64,000 nucleotides of DNA, taken from contig JBGTMH010000032.1 of NCBI GenBank assembly GCA_041743715.1, positions 131 to 64,130 on the forward strand, written 5' to 3'. The stretch is from Patescibacteria group bacterium (lineage in GTDB: Bacteria > Patescibacteriota > Microgenomatia > Levybacterales > UBA12049). This document shows positions 8,990 through 47,710 of this stretch, piece by piece. Below the pieces are notes generated by a model. That model was not told the DNA's origin, searched no databases, and worked only from the letters and a program-made list of their open reading frames with translations. Position 1 is the first letter of the stretch; every line of letters starts with the position of its first letter. A program made the translations under genes and the position numbers.

Positions 8990-9144
8990 TGAATACCGAA
9001 GACCAAACATTACAAGTCCCTCCCCAAAAGCTCAGCAAATACAACCGTGAGTCTGGCAAAAAAACACTCGCCTTTGTTGGTGTACTTATTCTGATTGTTG
9101 TTATATTTACGGTGGTAGCACTTTTTATGATGAACGCCGACTAA
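8989..9144 (+). CDS. Small single-TM protein (not in ORF track)
   Basis: 51 codons. The ATG overlaps the PBP stop (TAATG). The sequence is MNTEDQTLQVPPQKLSKYNRESGKKTLAFVGVLILIVVIFTVVALFMMNAD, with one clear TM helix. Confidence 0.35.
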   Translation: MNTEDQTLQVPPQKLSKYNRESGKKTLAFVGVLILIVVIFTVVALFMMNAD

Positions 9145-9163
9145 TCCACTCTTTCAAAAACGT

Positions 9164-9856
9164 TTATACATGGAGCTCTTGGAGTTTTGATTGAAGTAAT
9201 TGGTATTGTTTTTCAGGAGTATCGAGACCAAATAGAAAACTCGTTGCGACGAAACGTGTAGCACCCGCGGCGGCGGCGATGGCAATTGTTTCATCGTTGA
9301 TCCCTCCATCTACCTCAATTGGCAAAAACTCCATTTTTTCTCTGATGGATTTTACTTTCGTAAGTAATCGCTCCTCAAACTTTTGTCCTGAAAATCCTGC
9401 CTGAATTGTCATAACAAGTATGGCGTCTAAATCATCAAGCGGGACTGTAATCGCGTCCACGGGTGTTTGTTTATCAATGGATAAAGCAACTTCTCCGAGT
9501 AGTTGCGCTTGAGCCACGAATTCTTCTTGATCTGACATCTTCTCAATTTGTCCAATAAACCGGCGGAATCCAGCATCAGCCCATTTTTTAAGATGATTGA
9601 TCGGCTCTTCAACCATAAGATGGACTTCAAAAAAGACACCTTTTTCACCTGTCAGTAACCCAGCCTCAACGCCTGGTAACTCTTTTGTATACTTCTTAAA
9701 CGGCTCAGGATCAGCAAATGTTGTATTCTGAGCAAATTTTCCATCAATAACATCAATATGAATTGTTTTTGCAAATGGCTTGACCAGTTCAATCTTTTTC
9801 TCAATTTCTGAAAAATCTTTGTTTTCAGTACCGGGACTGGGGATTATTTCAAACAT
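9164..9856 (-). CDS. rpe: Ribulose-phosphate 3-epimerase-like protein
   Basis: 230 aa. HIDVIDGKFAQNTTF, EVHLMVEEP and VDGGIN match Rpe TIM-barrel motifs. It lies downstream of rpiB on the same strand. Confidence 0.7.
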   Translation of the reverse strand: MFEIIPSPGTENKDFSEIEKKIELVKPFAKTIHIDVIDGKFAQNTTFADPEPFKKYTKELPGVEAGLLTGEKGVFFEVHLMVEEPINHLKKWADAGFRRFIGQIEKMSDQEEFVAQAQLLGEVALSIDKQTPVDAITVPLDDLDAILVMTIQAGFSGQKFEERLLTKVKSIREKMEFLPIEVDGGINDETIAIAAAAGATRFVATSFLFGLDTPEKQYQLLQSKLQELHV

Positions 9857-9860
9857 AATG

Positions 9861-9908
9861 GATTTAAGACTTAAGACTTAAGACTTAGGATTTAAGAATT
9901 CTTAAATC
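9861..9908. repeat. TTAAGAC x3 tandem heptamer followed by a perfect 20-nt palindrome
   Basis: TTAAGAC occurs at 9864-9870, 9871-9877 and 9878-9884. GATTTAAGAATTCTTAAATC at 9889-9908 is self-complementary. All lie in the rpiB-rpe spacer. Confidence 0.7.
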
Positions 9909-9923
9909 TTTACTCTTAAATCA

Positions 9924-10427
9924 TTAATCTTTTTCTATTTCTTTTATTTTCTCAACTCTCCTCTTATGCCTTTCCTCTGTTGGACCTGAAAAATTGAGCC
10001 AAAGCTTGACTGCGGTAAAGATATCTTCTTCTCTCATAAATCTGATACCAATTGAAAGCATATTTGCTCCATTGTGTTCTCTCGTGAGTTTTATGATCTC
10101 ATAGGGATCACTGCTCAATCTTCCCTCTATATTAACTGCTTGTGTCGGAACAGCCGGTGTATAAAATAAAGCGCATCTCACACCCTTAAATTTATTTGCC
10201 ACCATCGCCTCTCCCTGTCCCGACCCACCAAAAATGATTCCCAAAGAATTCTGTGGATCTTTTGAAACTTTTTCCGCGGCTTTACTTATGAGATCGGGAT
10301 AATCATCAAATTTATCGTACTGATATGCGCCACAATCCTCTGCATCATACTCAGTCTCAAGGAGCATTTTATATACTTTATCTTTTAATTGAACCCCTGT
10401 ATGGTCAGCAGCAAGATAGACTTTCAT
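9924..10427 (-). CDS. rpiB: Ribose-5-phosphate isomerase B
   Basis: 167 aa. MKVYLAADHTG and GGSGQGEAMVANKFKGVRCAL match the RpiB/LacAB family. Confidence 0.85.
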   Translation of the reverse strand: MKVYLAADHTGVQLKDKVYKMLLETEYDAEDCGAYQYDKFDDYPDLISKAAEKVSKDPQNSLGIIFGGSGQGEAMVANKFKGVRCALFYTPAVPTQAVNIEGRLSSDPYEIIKLTREHNGANMLSIGIRFMREEDIFTAVKLWLNFSGPTEERHKRRVEKIKEIEKD

Positions 10428-10452
10428 ATAAAACTATGAGAAAATTCCAACG

Positions 10453-33203: not shown

Positions 33204-34532
33204 TTACGCAGCAAACCTGAATCCTCTTCCTTTAATCGTTTGCAGATGCACGGGATGATTGGCATCTTCTTCAATTTTACGACGGACTCGAAAGACGAGT
33301 TGATCAACAGCTTGATCTGTGATACCTGCTGTTGATTTAACTCCTTGCCAGACGATAGTAATCAGTTCGTCACGCTCCACAATTCGCGCCGATTGCTGCA
33401 ACAAATAACGAAGCAATCTGAATTCTGACGAGGTTAGTTGATCTGAGAGCACAACTGCACCTTTGCGAATTGTATTGGTATTTTCATCATAGACAATTTT
33501 CTGAATACTCTTCGCCGCTTCTTGGTACTCTGCGGTGATGAACTGGGCAAACAAAGGAATTTGAATTTTGTTCCCATGAATTAAGCCAACCTTTTCCAAA
33601 TAATCATTGACATCACGGTCAGCAAATGTACCCTCGAGCAAATCTGATTGCTCAGCAGGCGAGAGCGAAAACCAAATCTCATTTAATGCTCCTCTTACAA
33701 TCGTTTGTGTCAACAAAAATTCGCTGAGGTTTCCCGGTGTACTACCATGAGCAAGCAGTGTTTCAACACAAAATTTTGTTACCTTTCCGTGACCGCCGGT
33801 CAATGTCAGTACTTCTTTGAGAATCTGTGCAGACAGCTTCTTCCCAGTTAGCTTTTCAATAAACGAAAGTCGGAATGTACTAAATACCTCCTCATGCATG
33901 GCTACATACACGATATGACCTGCTACAAATTCGTAATATTCTGCAAGCAATGTCGGTTCAAGCATATTCTCCAAAGGTCTATTAACTGAAAAAACAATCG
34001 AGAAACGGTATTTTGCTCTATTGCGAAGAACACGAAGATTGGTAAAAAATTGACTTGTAACAGTTGGGACATACTCCTCAAAACGATCAAACAAAAACAC
34101 AATTGTTATTTTTTTCTCAAGAGCCATATAGTCAACTGCTTCTTTAAAGCCCTGAAATAACACCAACTCATCATTGAATTGGAGATGTTCCTGGAATTTA
34201 CCAACTACTACTTTATGTTCTTCAGTCATACCTCGTTCTCGGAGTGACTCGGTGAGATTAAGGAATAAATATTTCATCACATCAAAGAGATCACGATTGC
34301 GGATCTCTGAAAAATCAATCGCAACAAAATGTGTCTTTTTTTCGGCTGTACCGAGATGTTTTTGTCGGATATGTTTGTTATAGGCAAAAAGCCCAAGGAG
34401 TGTCGACCGACTCACGCCTGGGATGCCGACAACCTGACATGACCTGCCATCTTTTATATAGCTGACTATCTTTGCCATTTCCTCAAATCTCGTAGTATCA
34501 GGAAATTCTGCTTCAAAATGTTCGTCGTGCAT
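33204..34532 (-). CDS. AAA-like NTPase domain fused to C-terminal OmpR/PhoB-type winged-helix DNA-binding domain
   Basis: 442 aa. The P-loop-like VVGIPGVSRSTLL has Arg where Lys is expected, and the Walker-B-like segment is ITIVFLFDRFEE. The C-terminus LTSSEFRLLRYLL...VDQLVFRVRRKIE...IKGRGFRF matches the Trans_reg_C pattern. Confidence 0.7.
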   Translation of the reverse strand: MHDEHFEAEFPDTTRFEEMAKIVSYIKDGRSCQVVGIPGVSRSTLLGLFAYNKHIRQKHLGTAEKKTHFVAIDFSEIRNRDLFDVMKYLFLNLTESLRERGMTEEHKVVVGKFQEHLQFNDELVLFQGFKEAVDYMALEKKITIVFLFDRFEEYVPTVTSQFFTNLRVLRNRAKYRFSIVFSVNRPLENMLEPTLLAEYYEFVAGHIVYVAMHEEVFSTFRLSFIEKLTGKKLSAQILKEVLTLTGGHGKVTKFCVETLLAHGSTPGNLSEFLLTQTIVRGALNEIWFSLSPAEQSDLLEGTFADRDVNDYLEKVGLIHGNKIQIPLFAQFITAEYQEAAKSIQKIVYDENTNTIRKGAVVLSDQLTSSEFRLLRYLLQQSARIVERDELITIVWQGVKSTAGITDQAVDQLVFRVRRKIEEDANHPVHLQTIKGRGFRFAA

Positions 34533-34654: not shown

Positions 34655-34939
34655 ATGATTGACGCACCGGCTAGCGTTCCCACAGGAGGAACTGACGTAC
34701 TCGCAAAAGTGATCGGCAACGCAATCAACATCATGCTTATTATTGCTGTATTCGCAGCACTCGTATTTCTCATCCTTGGTGGCATCCAATGGATTAGATC
34801 AGGAGGAGATAAAAGCCAAATCGCCTCAGCCCGTTCAAAAATAACCATGGCAATTGTCGGTCTGGCCATCGCGCTCTTTGCTTTCCTTATCGTTAACCTC
34901 TTCGGTGTCTTCTTCAATGTCAAACTTTTTGGAAGATAA
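34655..34939 (+). CDS. T4SS pilin-like protein (VirB2/TrbC-like), copy 1, no obvious signal peptide
   Basis: Two-TM hairpin with the conserved loop ILGGIQWIRSGGDKSQIASARSKI. The ATG at 34655 follows AGGTGG. The track ORF starts at the TTG at 34577, and the ATG at 34619 is an alternative start. Confidence 0.55.
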   Translation: MIDAPASVPTGGTDVLAKVIGNAINIMLIIAVFAALVFLILGGIQWIRSGGDKSQIASARSKITMAIVGLAIALFAFLIVNLFGVFFNVKLFGR

Positions 34940-34991
34940 AGTTGATCTATTGACAAAGGTCAAAAAATTGTTTTATCATGGATACAGAGAT

Positions 34992-35393
34992 ATGAAAAAG
35001 ATTTTAGGAACACTCATAACAGCAGGCGCGTACTTAGGATTTGCAGTTTCAGCATTTGCGACAGGAGGTCAAGTTAATCCTTGTCCAGGTGCCGGTCAAT
35101 TTAGTAAACTGTGTAACTTAAATGCAAATAATATCGGTCCCCTCGTTGGAGCTGCAGTAACTTTCATTTTAATAATCGCAGTTTTGATCGCTCTCTTCTT
35201 CCTCATTTTTGGTGGTATCCGATGGATTACATCAGGTGGAGACAAAGCAAAGGTAGAAAGCGCCCGTGGAACAATCATTGCCGCAATCATTGGTTTGGTT
35301 ATCGCATTCTTAGCATTCTTTATCCTATCACTAGCACTGAGCTTCTTCGGACTCAGCTTGAACAACCTGCAATTGCCTACAGCTATTAAGTAA
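34992..35393 (+). CDS. T4SS pilin-like protein (VirB2/TrbC-like), copy 2
   Basis: Signal peptide MKKILGTLITAGAYLGFAVSAFA, then two TM helices flanking IFGGIRWITSGGDKAKVESARGTI. This is the pattern of the monoderm/CPR T4SS pilin family. Confidence 0.7.
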   Translation: MKKILGTLITAGAYLGFAVSAFATGGQVNPCPGAGQFSKLCNLNANNIGPLVGAAVTFILIIAVLIALFFLIFGGIRWITSGGDKAKVESARGTIIAAIIGLVIAFLAFFILSLALSFFGLSLNNLQLPTAIK

Positions 35394-35571: not shown

Positions 35572-35955
35572 ATGAAAAAACTTATTGCTTTAACCCTTCT
35601 TGTTGTCACCTTACTTGTTGCTGTCCCGCCTGCGTATGCACAAGGCAAAGAATGGGGAGATTGTGTCGATCCCCAAACAAAAATTGCTACTTTGAGATGC
35701 ATTCCAATTGTTTTCGGCAATATCGTTAGTGCCGCACTAGCGTTTGTCGGAGCAGTCTCGGTCATTCTTATCGTATACGCAGGTATCAGATTTATTACAT
35801 CAGGAGGAGATCCCAAACAAGTCGCTGCAGCTCAAAAAATTATTACTTACGCCCTCATTGGACTCGTCATTGTGCTCTGTTCGTTTGCAATTATCTACTT
35901 TATCAGTTACGCGACTGGTGTCAAGTGTATCACCAAATTTGGCTTTGGCTGCTGA
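35572..35955 (+). CDS. T4SS pilin-like protein (VirB2/TrbC-like), copy 3
   Basis: Signal peptide MKKLIALTLLVVTLLVAVPPAYA, then two TM helices flanking VYAGIRFITSGGDPKQVAAAQKII. The C-terminus is Cys-containing. Confidence 0.7.
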   Translation: MKKLIALTLLVVTLLVAVPPAYAQGKEWGDCVDPQTKIATLRCIPIVFGNIVSAALAFVGAVSVILIVYAGIRFITSGGDPKQVAAAQKIITYALIGLVIVLCSFAIIYFISYATGVKCITKFGFGC

Positions 35956-36174: not shown

Positions 36175-37575
36175 ATGGATCAACACCCAATACCACAAGA
36201 CGTTACCGGATTTCAATTTAAATTGATCGGCACCATGACAGTCAAACAATTTGGCTATGTCGCAGCAGGCGCGATCATGGCGGTTGCACTCTACTATTTG
36301 CCTCTTCCTCCCCTTTGGCTCCTTTTCAAACTTATATTCGTTCCGATTTTTGGCGCAAGTGGCGTAGTCATCGCTTTTGTACCCATCGAAGGCCGTCCGA
36401 TAGATGTTATGACAACAAACTTTGCGAAAGCGCTTTTTTCTCCCAATCAATATATTTACCGCCGTGCCGGAAGAAAATTAAGTTTTTCATCTGTCGCAGC
36501 TTTTAAGCCGCCAGCTGTATCTAAAACAGATCCAAAGAAAATTGAACATATAACACCTGCAAAAAAACAAATGAATCTGAAAGAAGAACAACTCCGTGCG
36601 TTTCTCCAAAGCTCCCAAGGGGTAGGCAAAACTGAGGCTGACAAAAAAGAGGCAGCCTTTCTCAAAACACTTACCATTACTGCACCTCAACTTGCGGCAC
36701 CAACAATTGCCAAGCCGTCCCCTACTAAAATTATCCCCACTGTTCACCTAACAGTTAGCACTCCTCAAGCCAAACCAGCTCTTATAGCTAAACCCATAAG
36801 TCCTCTTCAACCCAAACCTACAGCACCTGTCTTACCACTTCAAATGCCACCGCCTGCACCGGTCATACAATCGACCAGCCCAACACCAACACCAACACCA
36901 ACACCAGAAACGCCGGACATACTCGCAAAAAAAGAAAGTCAACTAGAGCAAGAACTGATACAAGCCAAGCAGGAAGAAACAAAACCTCTTGCTCCTTCTG
37001 CGCATGCAGCAGCTCATCAAAAAGTTGAAGAACTCGATAAACAAATTCAAGAAATACATTCCCAAAAGCAAAAACTTGAAGAAGAACTCACCCGTTTACA
37101 AACTCAGTTGACTTTACAAAAAAATCCAACTCCTCCCACAGTTCCTCAATCACCAGCACCAGTTCAAGTTCTAGCCCCATCAAAACCTGCCATCCCCATA
37201 CAAGATCCAAAATTTGTTAAGATCGTACAAAAAACAGTAACGAGCCAGACAGATATTCCGCAGGTTTCCGATTCGCCAAACGTCGTAGTAGGTATTGTAA
37301 AAGATCCGCGAGGTAATGTCCTATCAAATATCTTAGTTGAGGTAAAAGATAAAGACGGTAATCCTGTCAGAGCGTTTAAGACCAATCCTCTTGGCCAATT
37401 TGCCTCTGCAACACCGCTTAGTCCCGGCGTTTATACCATGGAGCTTGAGGATCCCAAAAAGATGCATAACTTCGATGTCATCCAAATTACAGCCAACAAC
37501 CAAATTATGAGACCGATAGAAATCATCTCACATGATGCAAGAGAAGCCCTACGACAACAGCTATTTGCAAATTAA
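36175..37575 (+). CDS. PrgI/VirB3-like membrane protein with Pro-rich linker, coiled coil and C-terminal carboxypeptidase-regulatory-like domain
   Basis: 466 aa. The N-terminus FQFKLIGTMTVKQFGYVAAGAIMAVALYYLP plus a second TM fits the PrgI-family pattern. The C-terminus VVGIVKDPRGNVLSNILVEVKDKDGNPV..TNPLGQF resembles a CarboxypepD_reg-type beta-sandwich. Confidence 0.5.
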   Translation: MDQHPIPQDVTGFQFKLIGTMTVKQFGYVAAGAIMAVALYYLPLPPLWLLFKLIFVPIFGASGVVIAFVPIEGRPIDVMTTNFAKALFSPNQYIYRRAGRKLSFSSVAAFKPPAVSKTDPKKIEHITPAKKQMNLKEEQLRAFLQSSQGVGKTEADKKEAAFLKTLTITAPQLAAPTIAKPSPTKIIPTVHLTVSTPQAKPALIAKPISPLQPKPTAPVLPLQMPPPAPVIQSTSPTPTPTPTPETPDILAKKESQLEQELIQAKQEETKPLAPSAHAAAHQKVEELDKQIQEIHSQKQKLEEELTRLQTQLTLQKNPTPPTVPQSPAPVQVLAPSKPAIPIQDPKFVKIVQKTVTSQTDIPQVSDSPNVVVGIVKDPRGNVLSNILVEVKDKDGNPVRAFKTNPLGQFASATPLSPGVYTMELEDPKKMHNFDVIQITANNQIMRPIEIISHDAREALRQQLFAN

Positions 37576-37578
37576 TAT

Positions 37579-38244
37579 ATGTCTGCCCAAAAAATACATG
37601 CAACCACACAAAAATTTACTGAGATTGTCGATTTCGCAGATGATATTGTCATCTTAGAAGGCGGCAACGCTTGTATGATTATTGAAATCACAGCAAGTAA
37701 TTTCGCTTTGCTCTCAAAACGGGAACAAGATAGCCGTATTTTCTCATACGCAGGACTGCTTAATTCACTGTCGTTTCCTATCCAAATTTTGATCCGTAAT
37801 CGGCGGATGGATATTTCCCAATATATAAAAGAGCTTGAAGGAATAATTACAACCACAAAAAACCCACAGCTTGCAACCTATGTCGAATACTACGCCGCAT
37901 TTGTCAAAGAAATGGTTACCGTTAACGTCGTATTGAATAAATCATTCTATATCGTTGTCCCCTTTTCTTCACTTGAGTTGGGGGTTACCGGTGCTACGCA
38001 AGGTCAACAAAAAGGACAAGTCAAAGCTGAAGCATTTACTCAGTCGGCTCGAAAAGCACTTCAAAACAAAGCTAATTCCCTTTTAGGTCAGTTGCAAAAG
38101 TTTGCAACCTCAGCGAAAGTACTAGAAAAAGAGGATTTGATTAAGCTTTTTTATGAAATTTACAATGAAGAAACAGAAGTTGATATTGGTCAGATGCAAG
38201 AAGGCGCAGGTGCTACAATGATTAAAGGAGAGACGAAACAATGA
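37579..38244 (+). CDS. Hypothetical T4SS-associated protein (weakly resembles a VirB4/TraC N-terminal region)
   Basis: 221-aa soluble ORF. The stretch IVDFADDIVILEGGNACMIIEITASNFALLSKREQD..F..LLNSLSFPIQILIR resembles the start of VirB4-type proteins by eye. Its stop overlaps the VirB4 start (ATGA). Confidence 0.4.
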   Translation: MSAQKIHATTQKFTEIVDFADDIVILEGGNACMIIEITASNFALLSKREQDSRIFSYAGLLNSLSFPIQILIRNRRMDISQYIKELEGIITTTKNPQLATYVEYYAAFVKEMVTVNVVLNKSFYIVVPFSSLELGVTGATQGQQKGQVKAEAFTQSARKALQNKANSLLGQLQKFATSAKVLEKEDLIKLFYEIYNEETEVDIGQMQEGAGATMIKGETKQ

Positions 38245-40313
38245 ATTTACCATTCGGAAAAAAACCACCAGCACCAGCGCCAGCTGCACCGAGTGCAGCA
38301 CCAGCCAAAACGGCACAACCTGCCAAAGGAGTACCCGGCAAAGGTCCCGTTGCAAAAGGAAAGGCAAAAGCACCCCCGCCACCTCCTGTTTCTAAAAATA
38401 TACAGAATCTTGAAAAAGGACTATCCTCTGTCGTGGATATTATCGCTCCTTCATCTGTAGAGGTTGACTTTCGCTATATCCGTGTCGGTGATTTCTTTTA
38501 TACGACACTCTTCATTGCAGGATACCCACGTTACGTTTCTTCTGCCTGGCTTGAAGCTATTATTGATTATGATCACACGATGGACATCGCTATGTTCTGT
38601 TATCCAACTTCATCATCCGACGTACTCGCTGATCTAAAACGAAAAATTGGGGAAATGCAGGCAACGCTCGCATCAGACGCAGAGCAAGGAAAAGTAGCCG
38701 ATCCAACAGTAGAAGCAGCACTTGAGGATGCGCTTGGTTTGCAAGAAGAGTTAGCTAAAGGTGTTGAACGATTCTTTCAATTTGGCTTTTATATTACCGT
38801 TTCTGATGCTGATTTGGTCAAATTGCAAGACACTATTAAAAACCTTCAGACAGCTCTTGGTTCTTTGCTTCTGACAGGAAAACTTGCAACCCTTCAAATG
38901 GAAGAAGGATTTAAATCCACGCTTCCTCTGGGACAAGACCGACTGTACATTACCCGCAATATGGATACTTCATCGCTTGCCTCCACATTTCCTTTCACCT
39001 CCGCAATTCTGACGCAAAACAAAGGTGTTATGTATGGCGTCAATCAACAGAATGGCTCACTTATTATTTTTGACAGATTCTCTTTGGAAAATGCCAATGA
39101 GGTCGTGCTTGGAAAATCCGGTGCGGGAAAATCATATACGATTAAGCTCGAGATTATGCGTCAGTTTATGCTTGGCTCTGAGGTTATTGTGATTGATCCT
39201 GATGGAGAGTATGAAACCATGACGCCAGCCCTTGGTGGAGAAGTTGTTGAATTTTCATCCGGCTCACAAATCAAAATAAATCCGTTTGACCTTTCAGATG
39301 TGTATGAAGAAGGTGAGAATGAGTTGGGCCTAAAAATCATGTCTTTGCATGGATTACTCAAGATCATAACTGGACAACTTGACGCTGAGCACGATGCTAT
39401 TTTGGACCGTGCCTTGATTGCGACCTATCTATCAAAAGGCATAACCACAGATCCTGCTACCCAAAAAAAATTACCCCCTCTCATGGAAGATTTGTATAAA
39501 ACACTCCTTGGTATGGAAGATAAGACCGCACGGGAAATTGCTTACACGCTTGAAAAGTTTATTAAAGGAAGTGCTTCAGGTATTTTCAACCAGCAATCAA
39601 ATTTTGAGATCAATAATCCCTTGACTGTTTTTTCTATCCGCAACCTTGAAGAAACGCTTCGTCCGGTTGCTATGCATATTATTCTTGACTTTGTCTGGAC
39701 AAAAGTAAAACGGTCACTGAAAAAACGCACATTAATTCTTGATGAGGGGTGGTATATGATGAAATATCAAGATTCCGCCTCATTTGTGTACTCAATTGCC
39801 AAACGTGCGAGAAAATACTACTTAGGGTTGACTACTGCCACGCAGGATGTGGAAGATTTTCTTAAAAATGAATACGGGAAGGCCGTTCTTACCAATTCGT
39901 CCATTCAAGTGCTACTCAAACAAGGAACTGCTGAAGTAGATATGATAGCCGAAACATTTTATCTTTCAGAGGGAGAAAAAGCACTTCTTTTATCTGCAGA
40001 TGTCGGCGAAGGATTATTCTTTGCCGGACAAAATCATGTGGCCATGAAAGTTTTTGCCGCGCCATTTGAACATGAACTTATTACCTCAAACCCAATGGAA
40101 CTTCTCAAACGCCAGCAGGAAAAAGAACGAGCCAATCAAGCAGAAGCCAACTCAACCGGTGAGACACAAACAGCCGCCGCGATGACGAACCCTACTGCCT
40201 CACCCACTCCAGCTGCTCCAACACCATCTGTTGAGAATACGGATATCTCCACTCCGACACCATCACCAAGTACACCTCCTGCTCCCCCAACACCGACTGG
40301 AACACCTACATAA
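38241..40313 (+). CDS. virB4: VirB4/TraE-type T4SS ATPase
   Basis: 690 aa. Walker A is LGKSGAGKSYT and Walker B is RTLILDEGWYMM. Also present are the N-domain motif APSSVEVDF.YIRVGD.FYTTLFIAGYPRYV and TTATQDVEDF. Both termini have Pro/Ala/Thr-rich low-complexity tails. Confidence 0.85.
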   Translation: MNLPFGKKPPAPAPAAPSAAPAKTAQPAKGVPGKGPVAKGKAKAPPPPPVSKNIQNLEKGLSSVVDIIAPSSVEVDFRYIRVGDFFYTTLFIAGYPRYVSSAWLEAIIDYDHTMDIAMFCYPTSSSDVLADLKRKIGEMQATLASDAEQGKVADPTVEAALEDALGLQEELAKGVERFFQFGFYITVSDADLVKLQDTIKNLQTALGSLLLTGKLATLQMEEGFKSTLPLGQDRLYITRNMDTSSLASTFPFTSAILTQNKGVMYGVNQQNGSLIIFDRFSLENANEVVLGKSGAGKSYTIKLEIMRQFMLGSEVIVIDPDGEYETMTPALGGEVVEFSSGSQIKINPFDLSDVYEEGENELGLKIMSLHGLLKIITGQLDAEHDAILDRALIATYLSKGITTDPATQKKLPPLMEDLYKTLLGMEDKTAREIAYTLEKFIKGSASGIFNQQSNFEINNPLTVFSIRNLEETLRPVAMHIILDFVWTKVKRSLKKRTLILDEGWYMMKYQDSASFVYSIAKRARKYYLGLTTATQDVEDFLKNEYGKAVLTNSSIQVLLKQGTAEVDMIAETFYLSEGEKALLLSADVGEGLFFAGQNHVAMKVFAAPFEHELITSNPMELLKRQQEKERANQAEANSTGETQTAAAMTNPTASPTPAAPTPSVENTDISTPTPSPSTPPAPPTPTGTPT

Positions 40314-40360: not shown

Positions 40361-41530
40361 ATGGACGATGAAAATGAACAAGGCGGCGGTGGCGATGATG
40401 GCGGTGGGGGTGCCGGAGGTAGCTCTGGTGATAAAAAACACGGCGGGCATTTTGACATAAGCAACCCGCTAAAAAATGCAGCAAGACGCGGGATGCCTAA
40501 CCCTGCAAATATGCGGGCAAACAATCCCTTATCAGGACGCGGAGGTCCAAAAGGTACGAAGAGAAGTATCGTAAGCGTAGGACGAGTAACCGCTCAAGCC
40601 TCAGCAGCCGCATTTAGAGGTATACTAGCTTTCTTTGCAACTCCCCCTGGCATAGTTACACTCGTATTAATTGCTGCTACTATATTTATTTTCTATATGC
40701 TTTTTGCAGACGAGGTAGCAAATCAACCACCTACGGAACCAGACCCTGCTGTTAGAGTACGTACCACCTGCCCCCCTCAAGCTGTTGTGGGACAAGAGTT
40801 TACATGTGCGATTTCAGCTACCTACCCGGGAATCGCAAAGGATTTCATTATCATTGACACCTATTTCGATGGACTTGAATACGTCTCTTCAATTCCAGAA
40901 GGAAAACATGACGCTACCGGTCGTAAGGTTACCTGGAGCATGAGCGATGCTGGTATACTTCTCACAAGCCCGCTTATCTTCGGAGTCACTGTCACCTTCC
41001 GAGTGCTCGGATCCGCACCTGATAAGCTCTACCAAAAAATACAAGCATACCCTGTCGAAGGATCTGTTTCAGCAGGAGCAGCAGCAAATTATGTACCAGC
41101 CAACAGAGACAACTGTGGAGGCAAAGCAAATCTCGGCAAAAACCCTCTCGGAAATTTTGGTGATCCGGCTTGCGACTATACCAACGACGAACTCTATACA
41201 TTTCTTAAATTAGAAGATCCACTCTATGCAGAACTATGGTATCTGACAATTGTTGTTGGTGAAAGCTCGTATAATCCCAACGCGTGGGCGGCACCAGTGG
41301 GCCAACAAGCAAGTCTGGATGCTGGCGGTGCATGGGGGAATTTTCAAATGGGAAGTAGTACACCACCTGGTACCGCGCCCCCTGCTCCTGGCAAAAATGG
41401 AGAATTCGATCGCGGAGATGTCAACTGGAAAATGCAAGCAAAAAGCGCAATTCAATATAATAGAAATCAGAATTGTAGTTTTCGGTATTGGGCAACTGCC
41501 AGGTCAAAATGGGGTGCTTACAAATGTTAA
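40361..41530 (+). CDS. Membrane-anchored protein with C-terminal lytic-transglycosylase-like (SLT) motif, VirB1-like candidate
   Basis: 389 aa with a Gly/Asp-rich N-terminus and one TM (GIVTLVLIAATIFIFYMLF). The C-terminus VVGESSYNPNAWA...GAWGNFQMG resembles the SLT catalytic E-S...GxxQ pattern. Confidence 0.5.
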   Translation: MDDENEQGGGGDDGGGGAGGSSGDKKHGGHFDISNPLKNAARRGMPNPANMRANNPLSGRGGPKGTKRSIVSVGRVTAQASAAAFRGILAFFATPPGIVTLVLIAATIFIFYMLFADEVANQPPTEPDPAVRVRTTCPPQAVVGQEFTCAISATYPGIAKDFIIIDTYFDGLEYVSSIPEGKHDATGRKVTWSMSDAGILLTSPLIFGVTVTFRVLGSAPDKLYQKIQAYPVEGSVSAGAAANYVPANRDNCGGKANLGKNPLGNFGDPACDYTNDELYTFLKLEDPLYAELWYLTIVVGESSYNPNAWAAPVGQQASLDAGGAWGNFQMGSSTPPGTAPPAPGKNGEFDRGDVNWKMQAKSAIQYNRNQNCSFRYWATARSKWGAYKC

Positions 41531-41555
41531 GCATAAAAAGGAAAGGATACTAGAC

Positions 41556-42113
41556 ATGAAACAAAAGCAAAAAGAAAATATTTTTATCATAGCGCTAGCG
41601 GGACTCCTTCTTATCATCGTTTTCTGGATTGCGATCCTCGCTTTTTCCGCAGAACCTACTTTGCAGCCGGAACAACAAATTCAACCAACAATTACAATTA
41701 CACTTACTCCAACTCCCACACATGAAACAACGTCTCCCCCCGTCAAATATGATACCGCGGCACAGGATAAGCTCTTAGATAAATTTAATAACAGACAGGC
41801 ACTCTCTTCAAATGATACATTTGCCAAGGCTAAGATACTTGCATCACTTCCGCCGGGTCAACAATCAGGAATTGTCTATAAAACCTCAAATATAAGCATC
41901 GAGTACGTTCATTCTCCAGACCTTTTCCAAATAGAAATTCTAACAACTGACATCGCTCAGGCCAAGGCAGCAGCAAATGTATGGTTCCGGGCACAAGGAA
42001 TGAGCCAACGGGGAATTTGTGACCTTCCGCTACTATTCTATTTAAATTGGGAAATTGCAAATCAAATGCGGGGACAAAACATCCAGTTTAGCCCGCTTGG
42101 GAACGGTTGTTAA
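41556..42113 (+). CDS. Bitopic protein, paralog family P, copy 1
   Basis: The ATG at 41556 follows AAGGAAAGGA. It has an N-terminal TM, a T/P linker and a ~115-aa domain ending GICDLPLLFYLNWEIA...FSPLGNGC. The track ORF is extended upstream. Confidence 0.6.
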   Translation: MKQKQKENIFIIALAGLLLIIVFWIAILAFSAEPTLQPEQQIQPTITITLTPTPTHETTSPPVKYDTAAQDKLLDKFNNRQALSSNDTFAKAKILASLPPGQQSGIVYKTSNISIEYVHSPDLFQIEILTTDIAQAKAAANVWFRAQGMSQRGICDLPLLFYLNWEIANQMRGQNIQFSPLGNGC

Positions 42114-42114
42114 T

Positions 42115-42687
42115 ATGAAACTTTACGATTACTTATTACAAAATAAAAAGCTCGTCATTCTTGTCACACTGTTTTTCATACTTTTGCCTCTTGGTTTTAG
42201 CAGAATACCCTACCCTACTAATAACTTCATTGAAAAAACTTCCCTTTCCCCTACTGTCTCTCAATTACAAAATACCACCCAAGAGACAACACCTACGATG
42301 CTTATACCGACAACACAGATAGTAGATGATGATCCACATAGTAAACTTCTTGACTTAATACAAAATAGACGACAACTTTCAGATGCTGACAGTACTGCAA
42401 AAAAGAATCTACTTCTACAATTACCAAACGGTGAAAGTTCTGGAAATATATATCTTTCTTCTACCATCAGAGTTGAGTATGTTCGAGGGCCCGATTTATT
42501 CCAAGTAGAAATATTAACCACAAATGTTGCGCTTGCAAAAGTCGAAGCTGCGGCCTGGTTTCAACAAAATGGTATCAGCCAAGAGGGTATTTGCAATCTT
42601 CCGGTAAGTTTTTATCTTAACTGGGATATTGCACAAAAACTCAGAAATAGTGATACTGTATTTAACCCCTTACCAAATGACTGTTAA
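42115..42687 (+). CDS. Bitopic protein, paralog family P, copy 2
   Basis: The start is 1 nt after the P1 stop (TAAtATG). The architecture is the same, and the domain ends GICNLPVSFYLNWDIA...FNPLPNDC. Confidence 0.6.
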   Translation: MKLYDYLLQNKKLVILVTLFFILLPLGFSRIPYPTNNFIEKTSLSPTVSQLQNTTQETTPTMLIPTTQIVDDDPHSKLLDLIQNRRQLSDADSTAKKNLLLQLPNGESSGNIYLSSTIRVEYVRGPDLFQVEILTTNVALAKVEAAAWFQQNGISQEGICNLPVSFYLNWDIAQKLRNSDTVFNPLPNDC

Positions 42688-42688
42688 T

Positions 42689-43210
42689 ATGAAAACATTA
42701 TTAAAAAAATTGCGATTTGATTCTTGGGCACTGTCGTTTTTAGCATTTATCATCGTTTTTCCACTCATTTTACTCGCGGCAAAAAACACACTTAATGTTA
42801 CTCCCGCCCAACAAACACATTTTCAGGAAACAACCAGTTCTGAAACAAACAATCCTCCTTCCGGAGGAACTCTTGAAAAGGTGGAGAACAGACAACCACT
42901 TTCCGCCACTGATGCAAAGGTCAAAGCAAAACTCCTTGCGCTTCTTCCTGACGGACAAAAGGCTGGTATTATTCACCAATCACCAAATATCAGAGTAGAA
43001 TATATTCTTTCTCTTGATCAATTTAATGTGGAAATTGTTAACACCAATATTGCAAATGCAAAAAAAGAAGGCAACGCATGGTTTCTAGAACAAGGCCTGA
43101 GCCAGAAAGGATTATGTGATCTTCCTCTTCGTTTTTACCTCAATAATGCCGTTTTCGAACAAATGCCTGATATACAAGACACATTCAACCCCTTGCCTGA
43201 TGGCTGTTAA
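42689..43210 (+). CDS. Bitopic protein, paralog family P, copy 3
   Basis: The start is 1 nt after the P2 stop, with the same TGTTAATATGAAA junction. The domain ends GLCDLPLRFYLNNAV...FNPLPDGC. Confidence 0.6.
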   Translation: MKTLLKKLRFDSWALSFLAFIIVFPLILLAAKNTLNVTPAQQTHFQETTSSETNNPPSGGTLEKVENRQPLSATDAKVKAKLLALLPDGQKAGIIHQSPNIRVEYILSLDQFNVEIVNTNIANAKKEGNAWFLEQGLSQKGLCDLPLRFYLNNAVFEQMPDIQDTFNPLPDGC

Positions 43211-43230
43211 TCTGTGTATGATAAAAGTGT

Positions 43231-43866
43231 ATGAATAAACTACTAAAAAGTGCCATTACTTTTTCGTTTATTGTTGGCTTATTCCTCATTACCCCATCAT
43301 TTACCATTGCCCAAGCCCCAAATCCCGAAGCACCTAAAAAGGATGGTGAATGTGTGGTAATAAACATTCCTGGCGCAATAATAAAGTCTACTCCTCCTCC
43401 AGGTTGTGAAAGTGTGGGAGGTGGCGGAGCACCTAAGGTCGTAGAATTAGCAAGACAGCAGGTTGGTAAGCCATATGTTTGGGGAGCACCTTCAGGTAGA
43501 AATTGGGCAGCATTAGATCCTGAAGCAGGAAAAACACCAGGATCGTTTGATTGTTCAGGGTTAGTCGGCTGGGCGTGGTATTGGGGTACTGGTGGTAATG
43601 TTAGTATGGCTGGACAAACATCAGCAGACTGGGGTAGTGGTAAATTTGAGAAACATCAACCGGGAGAACCTATGATACCTGGAGATCTGGTCTATTACTC
43701 GACTCCTAGTAACATTCATCATGTAGCTCTCTTTGCAGGGACGGGAAACTGTGGAACAAGTGATTGTATAATCGAAACCTATACAAGTAGTAAACCTGCG
43801 AGAGAAATTAGCTTAGCTCAAAAGGGAGGAACAGTGGTAGGGTTCTTACGACCTACTACTCAATAA
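43231..43866 (+). CDS. Secreted NlpC/P60-family cell-wall peptidase
   Basis: 211 aa with a signal peptide ending TIAQA. The catalytic Cys context is FDCSGLVGWAWYW and the His context is IHHVALFAG. An N-terminal module ECVVINIPGAIIKSTPPPGC is present. Confidence 0.8.
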   Translation: MNKLLKSAITFSFIVGLFLITPSFTIAQAPNPEAPKKDGECVVINIPGAIIKSTPPPGCESVGGGGAPKVVELARQQVGKPYVWGAPSGRNWAALDPEAGKTPGSFDCSGLVGWAWYWGTGGNVSMAGQTSADWGSGKFEKHQPGEPMIPGDLVYYSTPSNIHHVALFAGTGNCGTSDCIIETYTSSKPAREISLAQKGGTVVGFLRPTTQ

Positions 43867-43869
43867 GAT

Positions 43870-44397
43870 ATGGAAGAAAATATTAACATTAATCAGAATA
43901 TACAAAGTAACAAATATCTCAATTTTATTAAGAAAAATAAATACATTATTTTTGCATTTTCAATGCTCATTATTCTCATTAGTGTCTTTATTTCACTCAT
44001 GGTTGTTTCCTCAAATAGTTCATCGAAGATCGCTGTAACTCCCACTCCTACGCGGGATGGAACAATAACACCCCAACCTACCGTAACTTTTCCCTTAGTT
44101 CAACCCACAAAAGATACCAAGTCACAAGAACAAAAAATCATTGAAAACCAAACGAAACAACAACTTGATCAGCGAATCCAAATATCATACACAATAGAAA
44201 AAGTAAAAATCTATGAAGGAAATTGGGCAATCATGGTAGTGAATAACCCTACTACTGACCCCGCAAGGGTCGTAATTAAAAAAGAAAAAGGTAGTTGGAA
44301 CGTAATACTTGGCCCAGGAACATATTTTGATGATGCTGATTTACAAGCAATTGGAGCACCGTTGAACTTAATTAACGAAATCAACGGAATTCTTTAA
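43870..44397 (+). CDS. Hypothetical bitopic protein (paralog pair Q, copy 1)
   Basis: 175 aa with one TM and a T/P linker. The C-terminal domain is ..KIYEGNWAIMVVNNP..ARVVIKKEKGSWNVILGPGTYFDDADLQAIGAP. Confidence 0.5.
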   Translation: MEENININQNIQSNKYLNFIKKNKYIIFAFSMLIILISVFISLMVVSSNSSSKIAVTPTPTRDGTITPQPTVTFPLVQPTKDTKSQEQKIIENQTKQQLDQRIQISYTIEKVKIYEGNWAIMVVNNPTTDPARVVIKKEKGSWNVILGPGTYFDDADLQAIGAPLNLINEINGIL

Positions 44398-44457
44398 TAA
44401 TTTTGATACCATTTCCAACTTGAACTAATAAAACTCTAATTCAAGTGACATTTTTTT

Positions 44458-45048
44458 ATGATTGAAGGTGGAGAATCGTTTCCTAGTGGACATCATCCCT
44501 CTGAAATAATTAATAACACAACTGAAACTACTCCCGTTGTCACACCAATAAATAGGGGTGGACCTTTGAGAAGAAGATTGATTGGTGGAACAATGGCGGC
44601 AGCCACAGTAATCAGTGCACTAGGGATGTTTGGAATAAATAGAGGAATGGATTCAGAGCAATCGGATAAGAAACCCCTAGCAATTTCACAAATAACTGAT
44701 ATTCGTACTCCTCTTTTAGTATCATCATCCACCGAGTCACCACCACCAGTTGAGTCCCCAGAAATTAAACGCATTAAAGAACAAATTAAAAATAAAGTAA
44801 GTACAAGTGATAATGCTGAGGTTAGGGTTGAAGCACCTTATGATTTTTCTGATGTAGATATTTATAATGACTCTTGGGCAATAGCTCAAATAACTGGAAC
44901 CAACATTGACAACGCAAACATAGTCGTCAAGAAAGAGAAAAATGGACAATGGAAAATTGTAGAAGGACCCTTTACTTTTTCTGATGATGAACTATTACGA
45001 GCAAAAGGTGTACCTGAAGATGTAATAGAAGCTAGCGGTAAATTCTAA
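44458..45048 (+). CDS. Hypothetical bitopic protein (paralog pair Q, copy 2)
   Basis: 196 aa with one TM. The C-terminal domain ..DIYNDSWAIAQITG..ANIVVKKEKNGQWKIVEGPFTFSDDELLRAKGVP aligns with the preceding ORF. Confidence 0.5.
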   Translation: MIEGGESFPSGHHPSEIINNTTETTPVVTPINRGGPLRRRLIGGTMAAATVISALGMFGINRGMDSEQSDKKPLAISQITDIRTPLLVSSSTESPPPVESPEIKRIKEQIKNKVSTSDNAEVRVEAPYDFSDVDIYNDSWAIAQITGTNIDNANIVVKKEKNGQWKIVEGPFTFSDDELLRAKGVPEDVIEASGKF

Positions 45049-45049
45049 A

Positions 45050-45154
45050 CTACCCCTGTACCCGAATAGGCATGATCATGTGGAGGAAGGAGATGTCTCC
45101 TTGGATATTAAAAACCCCAGAAACGTCCTCCTCATCATTCTCCAAATTTAAAGC
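45050..45154 (-). pseudogene. Duplicated fragment of the dnaN 3' end
   Basis: The minus-strand translation is ..LNLENDEEDVSGVFNIQGDISFLHMIMPIRVQG*. The real DnaN C-terminus is ..GIFKIQGDTSFLHMIMPIRVQG*. By my manual alignment about 53 of the first 60 nt match 46601-46660. Confidence 0.7.
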
Positions 45155-45184
45155 ACATTCAACCACTTGCCTGATGGCTTTTAA
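45155..45184 (+). pseudogene. Remnant of a family-P gene 3' end (TFNHLPDGF*)
   Basis: ACATTCAACCACTTGCCTGATGGCTTTTAA plus the next ~30 nt of spacer align at roughly 85% with 43181-43240, which is the P3 3' end plus the spacer before the NlpC/P60 gene. Confidence 0.55.
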
Positions 45185-45205
45185 TCTGTGTATTATGAAA
45201 AGAGT

Positions 45206-45940
45206 ATGAATATACAATTAGAACGCTACATTATATATTTCATTGTTATGGGAATATTTCTCTTAACTCCTTTATTTCACAACGCTCAAGCCCAAAACAC
45301 AGGCGACGAGTGTGTTGTAATAGAAATCCCCGGCTCCTTAATTAAATCTTCTCCTCCCCCAGGATGTAACGCTGTAGGGCAAGATGGTATCACCTATCCT
45401 ACCAATATGACTTGTAAGCCTGATGGCTACTGTCAACTTCAACACCCTCAGCCTCCGAACGGTTCGTATCGAGCACTCAATTGTCAAAGTAAATATTTTG
45501 GTCATAAAGATCTTGTCGGTGTCCTTTACACAGTCTCGGAACGATGGAAGCAAAAATATCCAAGTGGTTTTCTTAGAATTGGCGATCTCAATGGTGCTGG
45601 TCATAAAACTCATAATAAAGGCTATGCTGTTGATCTGGATGCAACGACAAACGGTACCGATTGTGTTGCTGATTATGTAGCAGGTGGATTAGCACGCAAT
45701 TGCGGGGGGGGGAATTATAACCGGGAAGCAACGGTTGAATTAGGGAAAATGTTTGTTGATACGAATTCTATCCGACAAATTCTCTATATGGACCAATCAG
45801 TCAACAGTGCTGTTATGGAATATGCACGACAGACAAATAAATCACCAGGTATGAATATGTTTCCTGTTGCCCGCCATGACAACCACTTTCACGTAGATGT
45901 AAGAATTGAAAATCTTCCTTTCTGGGAACCTGGTTGTTAA
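45206..45940 (+). CDS. Secreted LAS-superfamily zinc murein peptidase (M15/M74-like)
   Basis: The ATG at 45206 gives a signal peptide ending NAQAQ. GHKTHNKGYAVDLD and RHDNHFHVDVRI fit the H-x6-D...HxH zinc site of LAS peptidases. An N-terminal module ECVVIEIPGSLIKSSPPPGC is present. Confidence 0.6.
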   Translation: MNIQLERYIIYFIVMGIFLLTPLFHNAQAQNTGDECVVIEIPGSLIKSSPPPGCNAVGQDGITYPTNMTCKPDGYCQLQHPQPPNGSYRALNCQSKYFGHKDLVGVLYTVSERWKQKYPSGFLRIGDLNGAGHKTHNKGYAVDLDATTNGTDCVADYVAGGLARNCGGGNYNREATVELGKMFVDTNSIRQILYMDQSVNSAVMEYARQTNKSPGMNMFPVARHDNHFHVDVRIENLPFWEPGC

Positions 45941-45955
45941 ATAATTTTCTTAACT

Positions 45956-46597
45956 ATGAATACATTTGTTACTAACATTATCGCTTTTGCCTTAAGATAC
46001 AAATTATATTTTTTTCTTTCAATACCATTGGTATTGATACTTTTTTCAGTAATTCTTATTTCTTTTTTTCAATCCCCCGTTTCGCAAACACCTCGCACTT
46101 CTGTTATTCCTACAGTTGTATCTCATACGAATTCCCCTCCTATCCCAACTACAAAACCTACAGGATTAAATAGAACCATAGAACCAGTTGAATCTGTCGA
46201 AGGAGAAGGTATTGAAGACAGATCAGGGCTTTTGAAAAAAGAGCAACTTTCGGACGGAACAACACAATATACTTATACTTCTCCCAATCCTGAACGACCA
46301 AATATTATTATAGCAAGAGACGAACAAGATATCTTATTTGAAAGAGCTGTCAGTCTACCTGATTATCCTGTTAAAATTTCAGAATATACACAACCATATG
46401 GTCAGCCCGAAAGAATCATTCGAGGTTCTTTGTTTTATGGTTCAAGCGCTGAAACTTATATTTATGCTCAGCGAGGATTTGCTTTTATCGCAAATCCTGA
46501 AACCACCTTAGTACTGGAACAGCATCTTTTTTCTCCTGTATCTGTTAACGAGTACATCAAAAAATACGGCGACGATATACCATCAAATACTCGATAA
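45956..46597 (+). CDS. Hypothetical bitopic protein
   Basis: 213-aa ORF with one N-terminal TM, a P/T-rich linker and a ~130-aa C-terminal domain. No family recognised. Confidence 0.5.
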   Translation: MNTFVTNIIAFALRYKLYFFLSIPLVLILFSVILISFFQSPVSQTPRTSVIPTVVSHTNSPPIPTTKPTGLNRTIEPVESVEGEGIEDRSGLLKKEQLSDGTTQYTYTSPNPERPNIIIARDEQDILFERAVSLPDYPVKISEYTQPYGQPERIIRGSLFYGSSAETYIYAQRGFAFIANPETTLVLEQHLFSPVSVNEYIKKYGDDIPSNTR

Positions 46598-46600
46598 CAC

Positions 46601-47710
46601 TTACCCCTGTACTCGAATAGGCATAATCATATGGAGGAAGGATGTGTCTCCTTGGATCTTGAATATTCCTGGATTGAGTGGGCCGATCATATCGAATGCT
46701 AAATCTTTCTCTTCAACATTTCCTAAGACATCAAGCAAATACCTCGCATTAAAAGCAATTTCATTTTCTTCACCTGTTAGCTTTGCATCTACACGTACGG
46801 TATTTTCACCGATAGCAGATGATCCAGATGATACGGTTATGTTATCTGCGGCTAAGGCAAATTTGATAATATTTGCTGAATCTCTTGCAAAGACTGAGCA
46901 AATCTTTACCGCCTTGAGTAATTCTTCTCTATCAAATGACACGCTGACTGAAAAATCAGAGGGGATAATTTTTGCGAAATTTGGAAATTCTGCTTCTATC
47001 AGTCTCCCAATTAGAACCGTATCTTCTTGTTCAAAAAGTACTTGATTATTTTGCTGAGAAACGTAGATCGAAATGTCTTTATTCTCATCCTTCAAAGAAA
47101 GCAATTCCCGGAAAACTCTGGCTGGAATGATATAAGATGCACTTTCTCCAGCTCTATTCTCTGTTGTTTTATAATGTCTTAAAGACAAACGATAACCATC
47201 AGTTGCGACAAGTAAAAATCCTTCAGGCTCTTTGCGTACCAAAACACCCGAAAGCGCTGGCCGCGCTGTATCTTGACTTGCTGCAAAGACGACAGATGAA
47301 AATTCATGTTTGATGTCTTTTCCTGACAAAACTGCGAGCTTTTCTCCCCTTTCTTCATACAACTTGGGGAATTCTTCACTATTTATAGTTTGAAAAATAC
47401 TTTTTGTTCGTTTCGTGTGGACTTCAAGCGTTTTCTCTTTTGTCTCAAGTGTCAGCATATCATCGGTCAGAGAATTTATCAGTTCAGTAAAAAGTTTTGC
47501 TGGAACAGTGATTTCACCGTGTTCTTCAATTTTTGCTGGACAAAAAATCTCTATTCCTATTTCCAAATCTGTACTGCTGAGCTTTATTTTCCCTTCAACT
47601 GATTCAATCAAAAAATTCTGTAGTACTGGTAATTGGCTTTTGGGAGAGACTGCTCTGTTGAGAAACGAAAGTTTACTTACGAGGTTTGGGGTTAATATCT
47701 GTACTTTCAT
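46601..47710 (-). CDS. dnaN: DNA polymerase III beta sliding clamp
   Basis: 369 aa. MKVQILTPNLVSKLSFLNRAVSPKSQLPVLQNFLIE.., ..ATDGYRLS.. and C-terminal ..LHMIMPIRV are canonical DnaN. It lies immediately downstream of dnaA. Confidence 0.9.
   Translation of the reverse strand: MKVQILTPNLVSKLSFLNRAVSPKSQLPVLQNFLIESVEGKIKLSSTDLEIGIEIFCPAKIEEHGEITVPAKLFTELINSLTDDMLTLETKEKTLEVHTKRTKSIFQTINSEEFPKLYEERGEKLAVLSGKDIKHEFSSVVFAASQDTARPALSGVLVRKEPEGFLLVATDGYRLSLRHYKTTENRAGESASYIIPARVFRELLSLKDENKDISIYVSQQNNQVLFEQEDTVLIGRLIEAEFPNFAKIIPSDFSVSVSFDREELLKAVKICSVFARDSANIIKFALAADNITVSSGSSAIGENTVRVDAKLTGEENEIAFNARYLLDVLGNVEEKDLAFDMIGPLNPGIFKIQGDTSFLHMIMPIRVQG

Follow-up and report, generated by a model that had tools for sequence, protein, structure and literature searches.

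The window analysed in the present study is a 64,000-nucleotide (nt) stretch of a Patescibacteria group bacterium (assembly GCA_041743715.1, contig JBGTMH010000032.1, positions 131 to 64,130 of the forward strand), and all coordinates given here refer to it. Plus-strand genes span 41.5-46.6 kb and are followed by the convergent dnaN gene on the minus strand, with dnaA beyond. Between three tandem paralogues of a gene family designated P and dnaN lie two cassettes, each consisting of a predicted secreted hydrolase and its membrane-anchored partner or partners, with cassette 1 first and each of the two preceded by a P-end and followed by a dnaN-end. Both ends of the unit thus occur twice, in the same order and orientation, with a single novel joint at 45050-45184. 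The features of the locus are as follows.

41556-42113, plus strand: P1, first of the three tandem P-family paralogues (from the open reading frame (ORF) list, with the start checked, and paralogue alignment)
42115-42687, plus strand: P2, P-family paralogue (ORF list and alignment)
42689-43210, plus strand: P3, intact P-family gene, whose last ~30 nt form the left repeat and hold the -35-like hexamer of the H1 promoter-like site
43193-43222, plus strand: promoter-like site 1, TTGCCT, 18 nt, TATGAT, 8 nt upstream of the H1 start codon ATG; 9/12 scan matches
43231-43866, plus strand: H1, predicted secreted NlpC/P60 hydrolase with signal peptide, Cys-loop ECVVINIPGAIIKSTPPPGC and catalytic domain
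43870-44397, plus strand: Q1, predicted membrane-anchored partner of the Q family
44458-45048, plus strand: Q2, second Q-family paralogue, with its exact product on Logan contig L162
45050-45124, minus strand: dnaN 3'-end fragment, a pseudogene scrap with the last 21 codons and stop clear and four more codons weak
45125-45153, no strand: 29 nt of filler at the novel joint
45154-45184, plus strand: P 3'-end remnant, ..TFNHLPDGF*, 29/31 identical to 43180-43210
45167-45196, plus strand: promoter-like site 2, TTGCCT, 18 nt, TATTAT, 9 nt upstream of the H2 start codon ATG, at a position homologous to site 1 and likewise picked by the promoter scan
45206-45940, plus strand: H2, predicted secreted LAS (M74/MepA-like) zinc peptidase, with a signal-peptide and Cys-loop module as in H1
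45956-46597, plus strand: R213, predicted membrane-anchored partner of the R213 family
46601-47710, minus strand: intact dnaN, 369 amino acids (aa), three beta-clamp Pfam domains, all complete; its last 63-75 nt (46601-46675) form the right repeat

P-family proteins share an N-terminal transmembrane helix, a linker and a conserved C-terminal domain ending in F[NS]PL..GC*. The cassettes are packed tightly against dnaN-derived sequence, with the Q2 stop 1 nt from that of the dnaN fragment and the R213 stop 3 nt from that of dnaN, a spacing that is similar in relatives. The gap between Q2 and H2 is 157 nt.

The original prediction, made from the nucleotide sequence, described a tandem hydrolase-cassette duplication bounded by two flank repeats. 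Self-BLASTN of the 4-kb region, as it had proposed, and a separate comparison of the junction halves with the whole window recovered both repeats at the predicted places and far above chance. On the right, 45051-45112 matches 46602-46663 at 55/62 positions (88.7%), with an E value of 6e-15 in the 4-kb comparison and 3.6e-15 against the whole window. When translated, this piece (GVFNIQGDISFLHMIMPIRVQG) finds its match in DnaN C-termini (tblastn E 2.5e-9), so the 3' part of the minus-strand frame at 45050-45154 is homologous to DnaN, as had been claimed. The homology is real but shorter than the predicted 105 nt: identity to dnaN is 55/63, then weakly 5/12, and then 12/30 up to 45154, the last of which is not significant relative to random 30-mers (P ~0.07). 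The translation matches DnaN only from GVF onward, and the motif GPLNPGVFK, almost invariant in the DnaN C-termini of ~75 relatives (GPLNP is kept in ~65), is absent upstream. As the final 30 nt do not exceed random similarity and the motif is missing, the fragment extends for ~63-75 nt. A source for the 29-nt filler was found neither in the window nor among the fetched loci.

Relatives of its dnaN (best identity 85%) assign the window to Candidatus Levyibacteriota. The comparison set comprised ~160 related loci from the Levyibacteriota (numbered here with the prefix L), fetched via dnaN, of which ~100 had readable downstream sequence. The dnaN fragment is 85% identical over 66 nt to the dnaN of its own genome and ~67-76% identical to that of the nearest species, with a maximum of 83% in a distant locus (L057). 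Eight of the ten differences from the intact gene fall at third codon positions (binomial P 0.003 against equal thirds, and P ~0.03 against a rough in-situ-decay expectation of 45%), a bias hinting that the fragment diverged mostly while it still belonged to a functional dnaN. The two right-flank copies were folded on both strands (z 0.1-0.6) without any terminator- or att-like structure, and the flank gave no match in the terminator scan or in Rfam. Lacking a significant fold and an Rfam match, the fragment is regarded as an inert scar.

The same stretch forms a minus-strand ORF of 55 codons (45050-45217) ending in the DnaN tail, which might be taken for a functional small gene under selection given its open frame and the preponderance of third-position differences. 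We attach next to no probability to this interpretation. Codons before the last 22-25 resemble neither DnaN nor any other sequence, the ORF would need a TTG start within the region where H2 begins, it runs across the promoter-like site of H2 on the opposite strand, and it has no counterpart at any other locus.

Direct repeats of a gene 3' end bracketing cassette 2 (45051-45112 and 46602-46663) could also point to a site-specific mobile cassette that integrated at the dnaN 3' end, restoring the gene with its own copy and displacing the old tail. Genomic islands integrate in this manner at tRNA or tmRNA genes, displacing the old tail, and the locus resembles islands at gene 3' ends in having a truncated 3'-end copy one cassette-length from the intact end and in direct orientation. 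Unlike such islands, it encodes no integrase, recombinase or transposase among the genes of 40361-47710, where all ORFs are accounted for, and the repeat is without significant structure, as noted above. The target is also not reused, since blastn and tblastn searches found a dnaN fragment in 0/143 related loci, leaving the present genome as the only carrier; for dnaN, this runs counter to the suggestion in the original prediction that recombination recurs at the flanks. No carriage of the cassettes by phages or IMG/VR sequences was found, H1 having only NlpC/P60 tail-lysin matches in PHROGs and only distant catalytic-domain matches in IMG/VR, where H2 has no relative. The element would moreover begin with a fragment of the other flanking gene, P, which an att model leaves unexplained, and we consider a mobile cassette very improbable.

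On the left, 43180-43226 and 45154-45200 are identical at 43/47 positions (91%) by self-BLASTN, and the flank extends over 67 nt (43180-43245 versus 45154-45220) at 88% (88.1%) identity with an E value of 1e-15 against the whole window. No further copy of either flank piece is present in the 64-kb window. The left homology goes on at 69.6% over 240 nt (43180-43418 versus 45154-45378, E 3e-31) and into the hydrolases, whose N-terminal 60 aa are 50% identical (E 7e-18). The interiors of the two cassettes had been described as unrelated, which is accurate for the catalytic domains and partner genes but not for these first 60 aa. Identity by segment is 29/31 for the P-end, 18/21 for the spacer, 59/90 for the signal peptide, 11/30 for the linker and 45/60 for the Cys-loop.

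The remnant of P in the second flank is no longer a gene, its frame being closed by a TAA 6 nt (two codons) upstream of the ACA (Thr) codon, and it has lost the conserved Pro and Cys of the P tail. Contrary to the description of this flank as non-functional, it carries the promoter-like arrangement TTGCCT-18 nt-TATNAT, and similar remnants, short dead copies of an FNPLPDGC* tail just upstream of a hydrolase gene, occur in L006, L084, L087 and L089. TTGCC(T/A), 18 nt and TAT(G/T)AT are kept in every P-end copy, followed by 6-12 nt to the hydrolase ATG. The -35 falls inside an intact P tail in L004, L081, L094 and L017, and the promoter-like geometry is found with intact P ends in L004, L081 and L094. 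A sigma-70-type hexamer pair at 18-nt spacing is therefore conserved at homologous positions, as judged from sequence. The left flank would accordingly comprise the promoter-like element of the cassette, its start codon and the shared signal-peptide/Cys-loop module. Because the dead copies are conserved across species with only 76% DnaN identity, we infer that the P fragment has been kept by selection as the putative cassette promoter; the argument for this candidate promoter comes from conservation and not from the promoter scan.

Two further observations concern this region. The -10-like TATGAT/TATTAT lies just 6-12 nt before the ATG, without a Shine-Dalgarno sequence, in both copies in the window (43217-43233 and 45191-45208), and the same close spacing is seen upstream of hydrolase genes in L004, L006, L081, L087 and L094; the slot hydrolase genes look leaderless or nearly so. 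In addition, an exact 8-nt direct repeat, GTGTATGA, at 43214-43221 and 43227-43234 (period 13) overlaps both the -10 box and the start codon of H1. Copy 2 and the remnants of L006, L084 and L089 have it in degenerate form, and it could be a regulator site or a chance occurrence.

The predicted contents of the cassettes were confirmed, with an NlpC/P60 hydrolase and two Q-family genes in the first, and a LAS-type zinc peptidase and a different gene, R213, unrelated to the Q family by sequence comparison, in the second. H1 scores 41.7 bits against Pfam PF00877, above the gathering cut-off of 23 bits, and has Rip-like NCBIfam matches. H2 alone reaches 19.5 bits against Pfam M74, below the cut-off of 25 bits, and finds no match among Protein Data Bank (PDB) sequences, while its orthologue in L011 scores 35 bits, above the cut-off. 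The H2 family profile, and only the profile, matches Escherichia coli MepA (1TZP, E 1.3e-3) with the HxxxxxxD and HxH zinc motifs aligned, and HNKGYAVD and HFH are invariant in the family alignment. Based on these motifs and the family match, H2 is predicted to be a LAS metallopeptidase of the M74/MepA-like type. The paralogues Q1 and Q2 share 36% identity over 92 aa; relatives carry one Q gene, the two Q genes of cassette 1 being an older internal duplication.

Q, R213 and P have no family match in Pfam, NCBIfam or PHROGs, and R213 has only five homologues among 5.8 billion proteins. An AlphaFold2 model of R213 comprises a transmembrane helix, a disordered linker and a beta-rich domain, with a predicted local distance difference test (pLDDT) score of 58, and a Foldseek comparison with the PDB gave nothing significant. 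The P3 model contains a confident C-terminal alpha/beta domain (pLDDT 85-94) without a significant PDB neighbour or fold match. An assignment of P or R213 as a VirB8-like NTF2 protein was considered and is unsupported, the models having no significant PDB neighbours.

In their N-terminal modules H1 and H2 match each other best in both directions, the Cys-loops being 67% identical versus ≤48% for 58 others, and the two modules have in common a derived ECVVIxIPGxxIKSxPPPGC that is found in no other lineage. The catalytic domains of H1 and H2 group instead with those of other species (46-50%).

Comparison with relatives, which the original prediction had recommended, revealed both presence/absence and alternative cargo in the slot. 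The Levyibacteriota loci share a conserved synteny of dnaA-dnaN, a convergent slot, P, an SLT-like gene and VirB4. Only 11-31 nt separate dnaN from the first P gene in L016, L018 and L079, where the slot is empty, while in most loci the distance is ~1.3-2.1 kb (one cassette), rising to 2.9 kb in L022 and to 3391 nt in the present genome, the longest seen. The H1+Q combination adjoins dnaN in ~13 loci and is the sole hydrolase cassette in many (e.g. L004, L006, L008, L009, L010, L083, L084, L086, L088 and L100), being accompanied by an R213-family gene in L002 and L089. H2+R213 occurs alone in L011, L019, L021 and L114. A single Cys-loop hydrolase is present in the slot of 52 loci, and two are found only in the window and in L013. 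The latter (6890-10679) has one C39-like enzyme among its two Cys-loop hydrolases, no P gene and no recognisable scars.

Slot hydrolases have in common a signal peptide and Cys-loop, typically SNCVITKVGNP...PPxC, followed by NlpC/P60, M74-like, C39-like, CHAP, Amidase_2/3, M23 or HExxH domains. The dnaN-side neighbour of the hydrolase belongs to the R213 family in 30 cases, to the Q family in 12 (always with NlpC/P60) and to other families in 13. The R213 family accompanies most other domain types and also occurs as orphans, whereas the Q family is found only with NlpC/P60-type hydrolases.

Several arrangements depart from the simple cassette. R213-family genes flank the hydrolase on either side or remain as orphans next to H1+Q in L001 (11119-13085), L026 (11118-13092), L022 (11101-14032), L002 (8916-9572) and L089 (10562-11269), which suggests that partner genes outlast their hydrolases. 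In L102 (3932-5076) an H2+R213-type pair is found not next to dnaN but beyond the SLT-like gene, on its VirB4 side; the cluster can therefore take cassettes at a second position. Where slot hydrolases are larger and have several domains (L042, L032, L022 and L004), the Cys-loop (e.g. SPCVITKVGNPSVSPVLPPNC) lies between two catalytic domains instead of after the signal peptide, and it therefore appears to behave as a portable linker or module.

The tandem duplication of a unit running from inside P3 to inside dnaN, as originally proposed, agrees with the order of the parts and the single joint, and so does a Campbell-type junction of such a unit. Homology between the two units does not extend over their whole length, being confined to the first ~240 nt and the last ~63-75 nt. 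Plain duplication followed by divergence is excluded, as the catalytic domains and partner genes come from unrelated families. The suggested recent cassette replacement is likewise not upheld: the flanks are 11-13% diverged and no exact run exceeds 14 nt (the longest being 13-14 nt), so the stacking event is not recent. By minimal homology lengths for RecA-type recombination, collapse of the stack is unlikely now. The window contains no foreign-looking block in its composition.

An assembly artefact, in which the alternative cassettes of two co-existing strains were chained into one contig, merits consideration given the metagenome-assembled source and a slot that is polymorphic between species. 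Repeats diverged to this extent are, however, too short in exact runs for k-mer collapse, and the joint holds 29 nt found nowhere else. Two Logan contigs assembled separately, from SRR28170470, match the window at 100%, L162 at 44144-45267, across the joint, and L161 at 45708-46643. Exact-product look-ups for dnaN, H1 and H2 returned no record, only R213 and Q2 being found, on short Logan contigs. We consider an artefact hardly credible.

In the model that we propose, the slot would normally be empty or hold one cassette consisting of a promoter, a Sec-exported peptidoglycan hydrolase and one or two membrane-anchored partners. The cassette promoter would have its -35 in the last P codons, an exchangeable catalytic domain would follow the signal peptide and short Cys-loop, and the partner stop would abut that of dnaN. 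At the present locus two alternative slot alleles, NlpC/P60 + Q + Q and LAS peptidase + R213, would have been stacked by one illegitimate joint that links dnaN, ~75 nt in from its 3' end, through 29 nt of filler to P, ~30 nt in from its own 3' end. The route that we infer is a one-step insertion of an allelic segment from a related strain, with a homology anchor on one side and illegitimate joining on the other, or alternatively a Campbell-type integration of a circularised segment. As partner and dnaN abut, any segment carrying a complete cassette would drag along a dnaN tail, and as the promoter is proposed to sit in the P tail, only segments with that tail would be expressed. The two flank copies would thereby be accounted for.

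Homology-facilitated illegitimate recombination and Campbell-type integration leave one non-homologous joint, a short filler and duplicated stretches of flanking genes around foreign or allelic DNA. The joint, short filler and duplicated resident-gene ends seen here resemble such a product, although no point of homologous anchoring could be placed within dnaN.

The main competing explanation, which is the model of the original prediction, is that a tandem duplication spanning P codon -10 to dnaN codon -25 came first in this lineage, after which homologous recombination with foreign DNA replaced the catalytic domain and partner(s) in one of the copies, with the Cys-loop module on the left and dnaN on the right serving as arms. 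The junction topology agrees with this sequence of events, as do the reciprocal best matches and derived features of the H1 and H2 N-terminal modules and a homology tract that stops just past the Cys-loop; the wide variation between species in the catalytic domains behind the conserved Cys-loop also implies that swaps occur. The signal-peptide DNA is, however, only 66% identical, versus 87-89% for the supposedly coeval neutral scar, which is the opposite of what one event and drift would leave. The third-position bias of the dnaN differences also points against it, and two events are needed where one suffices. We regard duplication before replacement as unlikely, while giving it far more weight than a mobile cassette or an artefact.

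One-step stacking of two alternative alleles via one illegitimate junction, within the general slot model, is favoured because the flanks (~88-94% identical) are far more alike than the adjoining signal-peptide DNA (66%), because of the third-position bias, and because a single event is sufficient. We estimate its probability at roughly 65%. A number of points weigh against it. Synonymous differences are absent between the P remnant and P3 but numerous in the dnaN piece, a poor fit to a single donor, albeit in small numbers. No same-species strain was found in genome or metagenome scans (best dnaN identity 85% and 81%, respectively), and neither the parental single-cassette state nor a donor was observed among them. 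The derived Cys-loop common to H1 and H2 could just as well reflect internal duplication and a later domain swap, though a same-species donor would also explain it. The P-end remnants elsewhere could stem from deletion of a P paralogue instead of cassette import, and the promoter call is a 9/12 consensus match in a region with 23 such matches versus 18.5 ± 3.9 expected, i.e. no excess.

Genes upstream of the slot, in the same orientation, include two for T4SS_pilin, a PrgI-like one, a split CD1110-type VirB4 and an SLT-like one (40361-41530), indicative of a type IV secretion system (T4SS). The VirB4 is divided between a 221-aa, VirB4 N-terminal/TrsD-like protein (37579-38244) and a 690-aa CD1110-type ATPase (38241-40313) with a 4-nt overlap, and the two halves give separate matches in relatives too. 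The four ORFs at 34854-35393, 35572-35955, 36175-37575 and 33204-34532, upstream of the T4SS cluster, are the two T4SS_pilin (PF18895) genes, the PrgI-like gene, whose product has a CarboxypepD_reg domain, and a gene in divergent orientation whose 442-aa product has an OmpR/PhoB-type winged helix at its C-terminus. ENA records with the Levyibacteriota-type dnaA-dnaN-T4SS locus (L001, which is OZ246394.1, L003, L006, L007 and L026, besides many more) bear the title 'uncultured Gammaproteobacteria bacterium', which looks wrong.

A Patescibacterial monoderm-type T4SS near dnaA/dnaN has been described in Microgenomatia, and the origin-proximal T4SS was reported to be essential for epibiotic growth in one tested species (PMC12102498). 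The same study notes virB4-adjacent peptidase and lysozyme homologues as essential in a Saccharimonadia epibiont (PMC12102498). Judging by gene content and synteny, the P-to-dnaN stretch would be the variable end of a chromosomal, origin-proximal, monoderm-type T4SS cluster in the Levyibacteriota.

VirB1-like hydrolases of monoderm (MPF-FATA) T4SS include PrgK of pCF10, TraG of pIP501 and CD419/TrsG-type proteins (PMC12102498). The slot enzymes resemble these in being encoded within a VirB4-containing T4SS cluster and in having NlpC/P60, CHAP, SLT or peptidase domains of the peptidoglycan-cutting kind. Unlike them, the slot enzymes are small, single-domain and Sec-secreted, with a Cys-loop module and a partner gene, and they vary between species in presence/absence and domain. 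The usual place of VirB1 is already taken here by the separate SLT-like gene.

Polymorphic toxin loci, such as the cdiA-CT/cdiI loci of contact-dependent inhibition (CDI) and Rhs-CT/immunity arrays, are characterised by stacked or orphan cassettes, an exchangeable C-terminal enzymatic domain, a small downstream partner and recombination at the conserved part. Compared with this general description, the slot hydrolases likewise join a conserved N-terminal part to variable C-terminal catalytic domains, have a small partner gene immediately downstream, and occur here as alternative cassettes side by side. In contrast to the promoterless orphans of CDI/Rhs arrays, both copies here are complete genes with a promoter-like site, start codon and Sec signal peptide. 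The R213 partner family also goes with many catalytic types, unlike specific CDI/Rhs immunity proteins.

The most likely role of the slot hydrolases is local peptidoglycan cutting that serves the T4SS, on the bacterium's own wall or that of its host, the latter being considered because of the variability of the slot and the epibiotic lifestyle. More tentatively, the slot may be a polymorphic effector locus of the Patescibacterial T4SS, involved in host range or effector-immunity, in which catalytic domains directed at the wall of a partner cell are swapped behind a lineage-specific Cys-loop targeting module, cassettes are self-contained units of expression with the promoter inside the tail of the preceding gene, and the double cassette is a preserved allele-switching intermediate. 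This proposal is possible but falls well short of probable; if it were correct, new specificities would be added before old ones are lost.

As far as PMC12102498 shows, the variable hydrolase slot, the Cys-loop module and the putative promoter embedded in the P tail appear to be new, and we consider them to be of moderate interest. Duplication itself is ordinary genome evolution, and the present case is modest but instructive. The locus preserves a rare molecular scar of cassette addition, and provides what would be a clean natural example of how a putative promoter in the end of an upstream gene makes that gene tail travel with the downstream cassette. Patescibacteria, also known as CPR (candidate phyla radiation), depend on host cells, and in the Levyibacteriota the last position of the T4SS cluster is a fast-changing slot for secreted wall hydrolases that share an N-terminal module. 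Should these enzymes target the wall of the host, the slot would offer a candidate marker for host specificity as well as an experimental handle.

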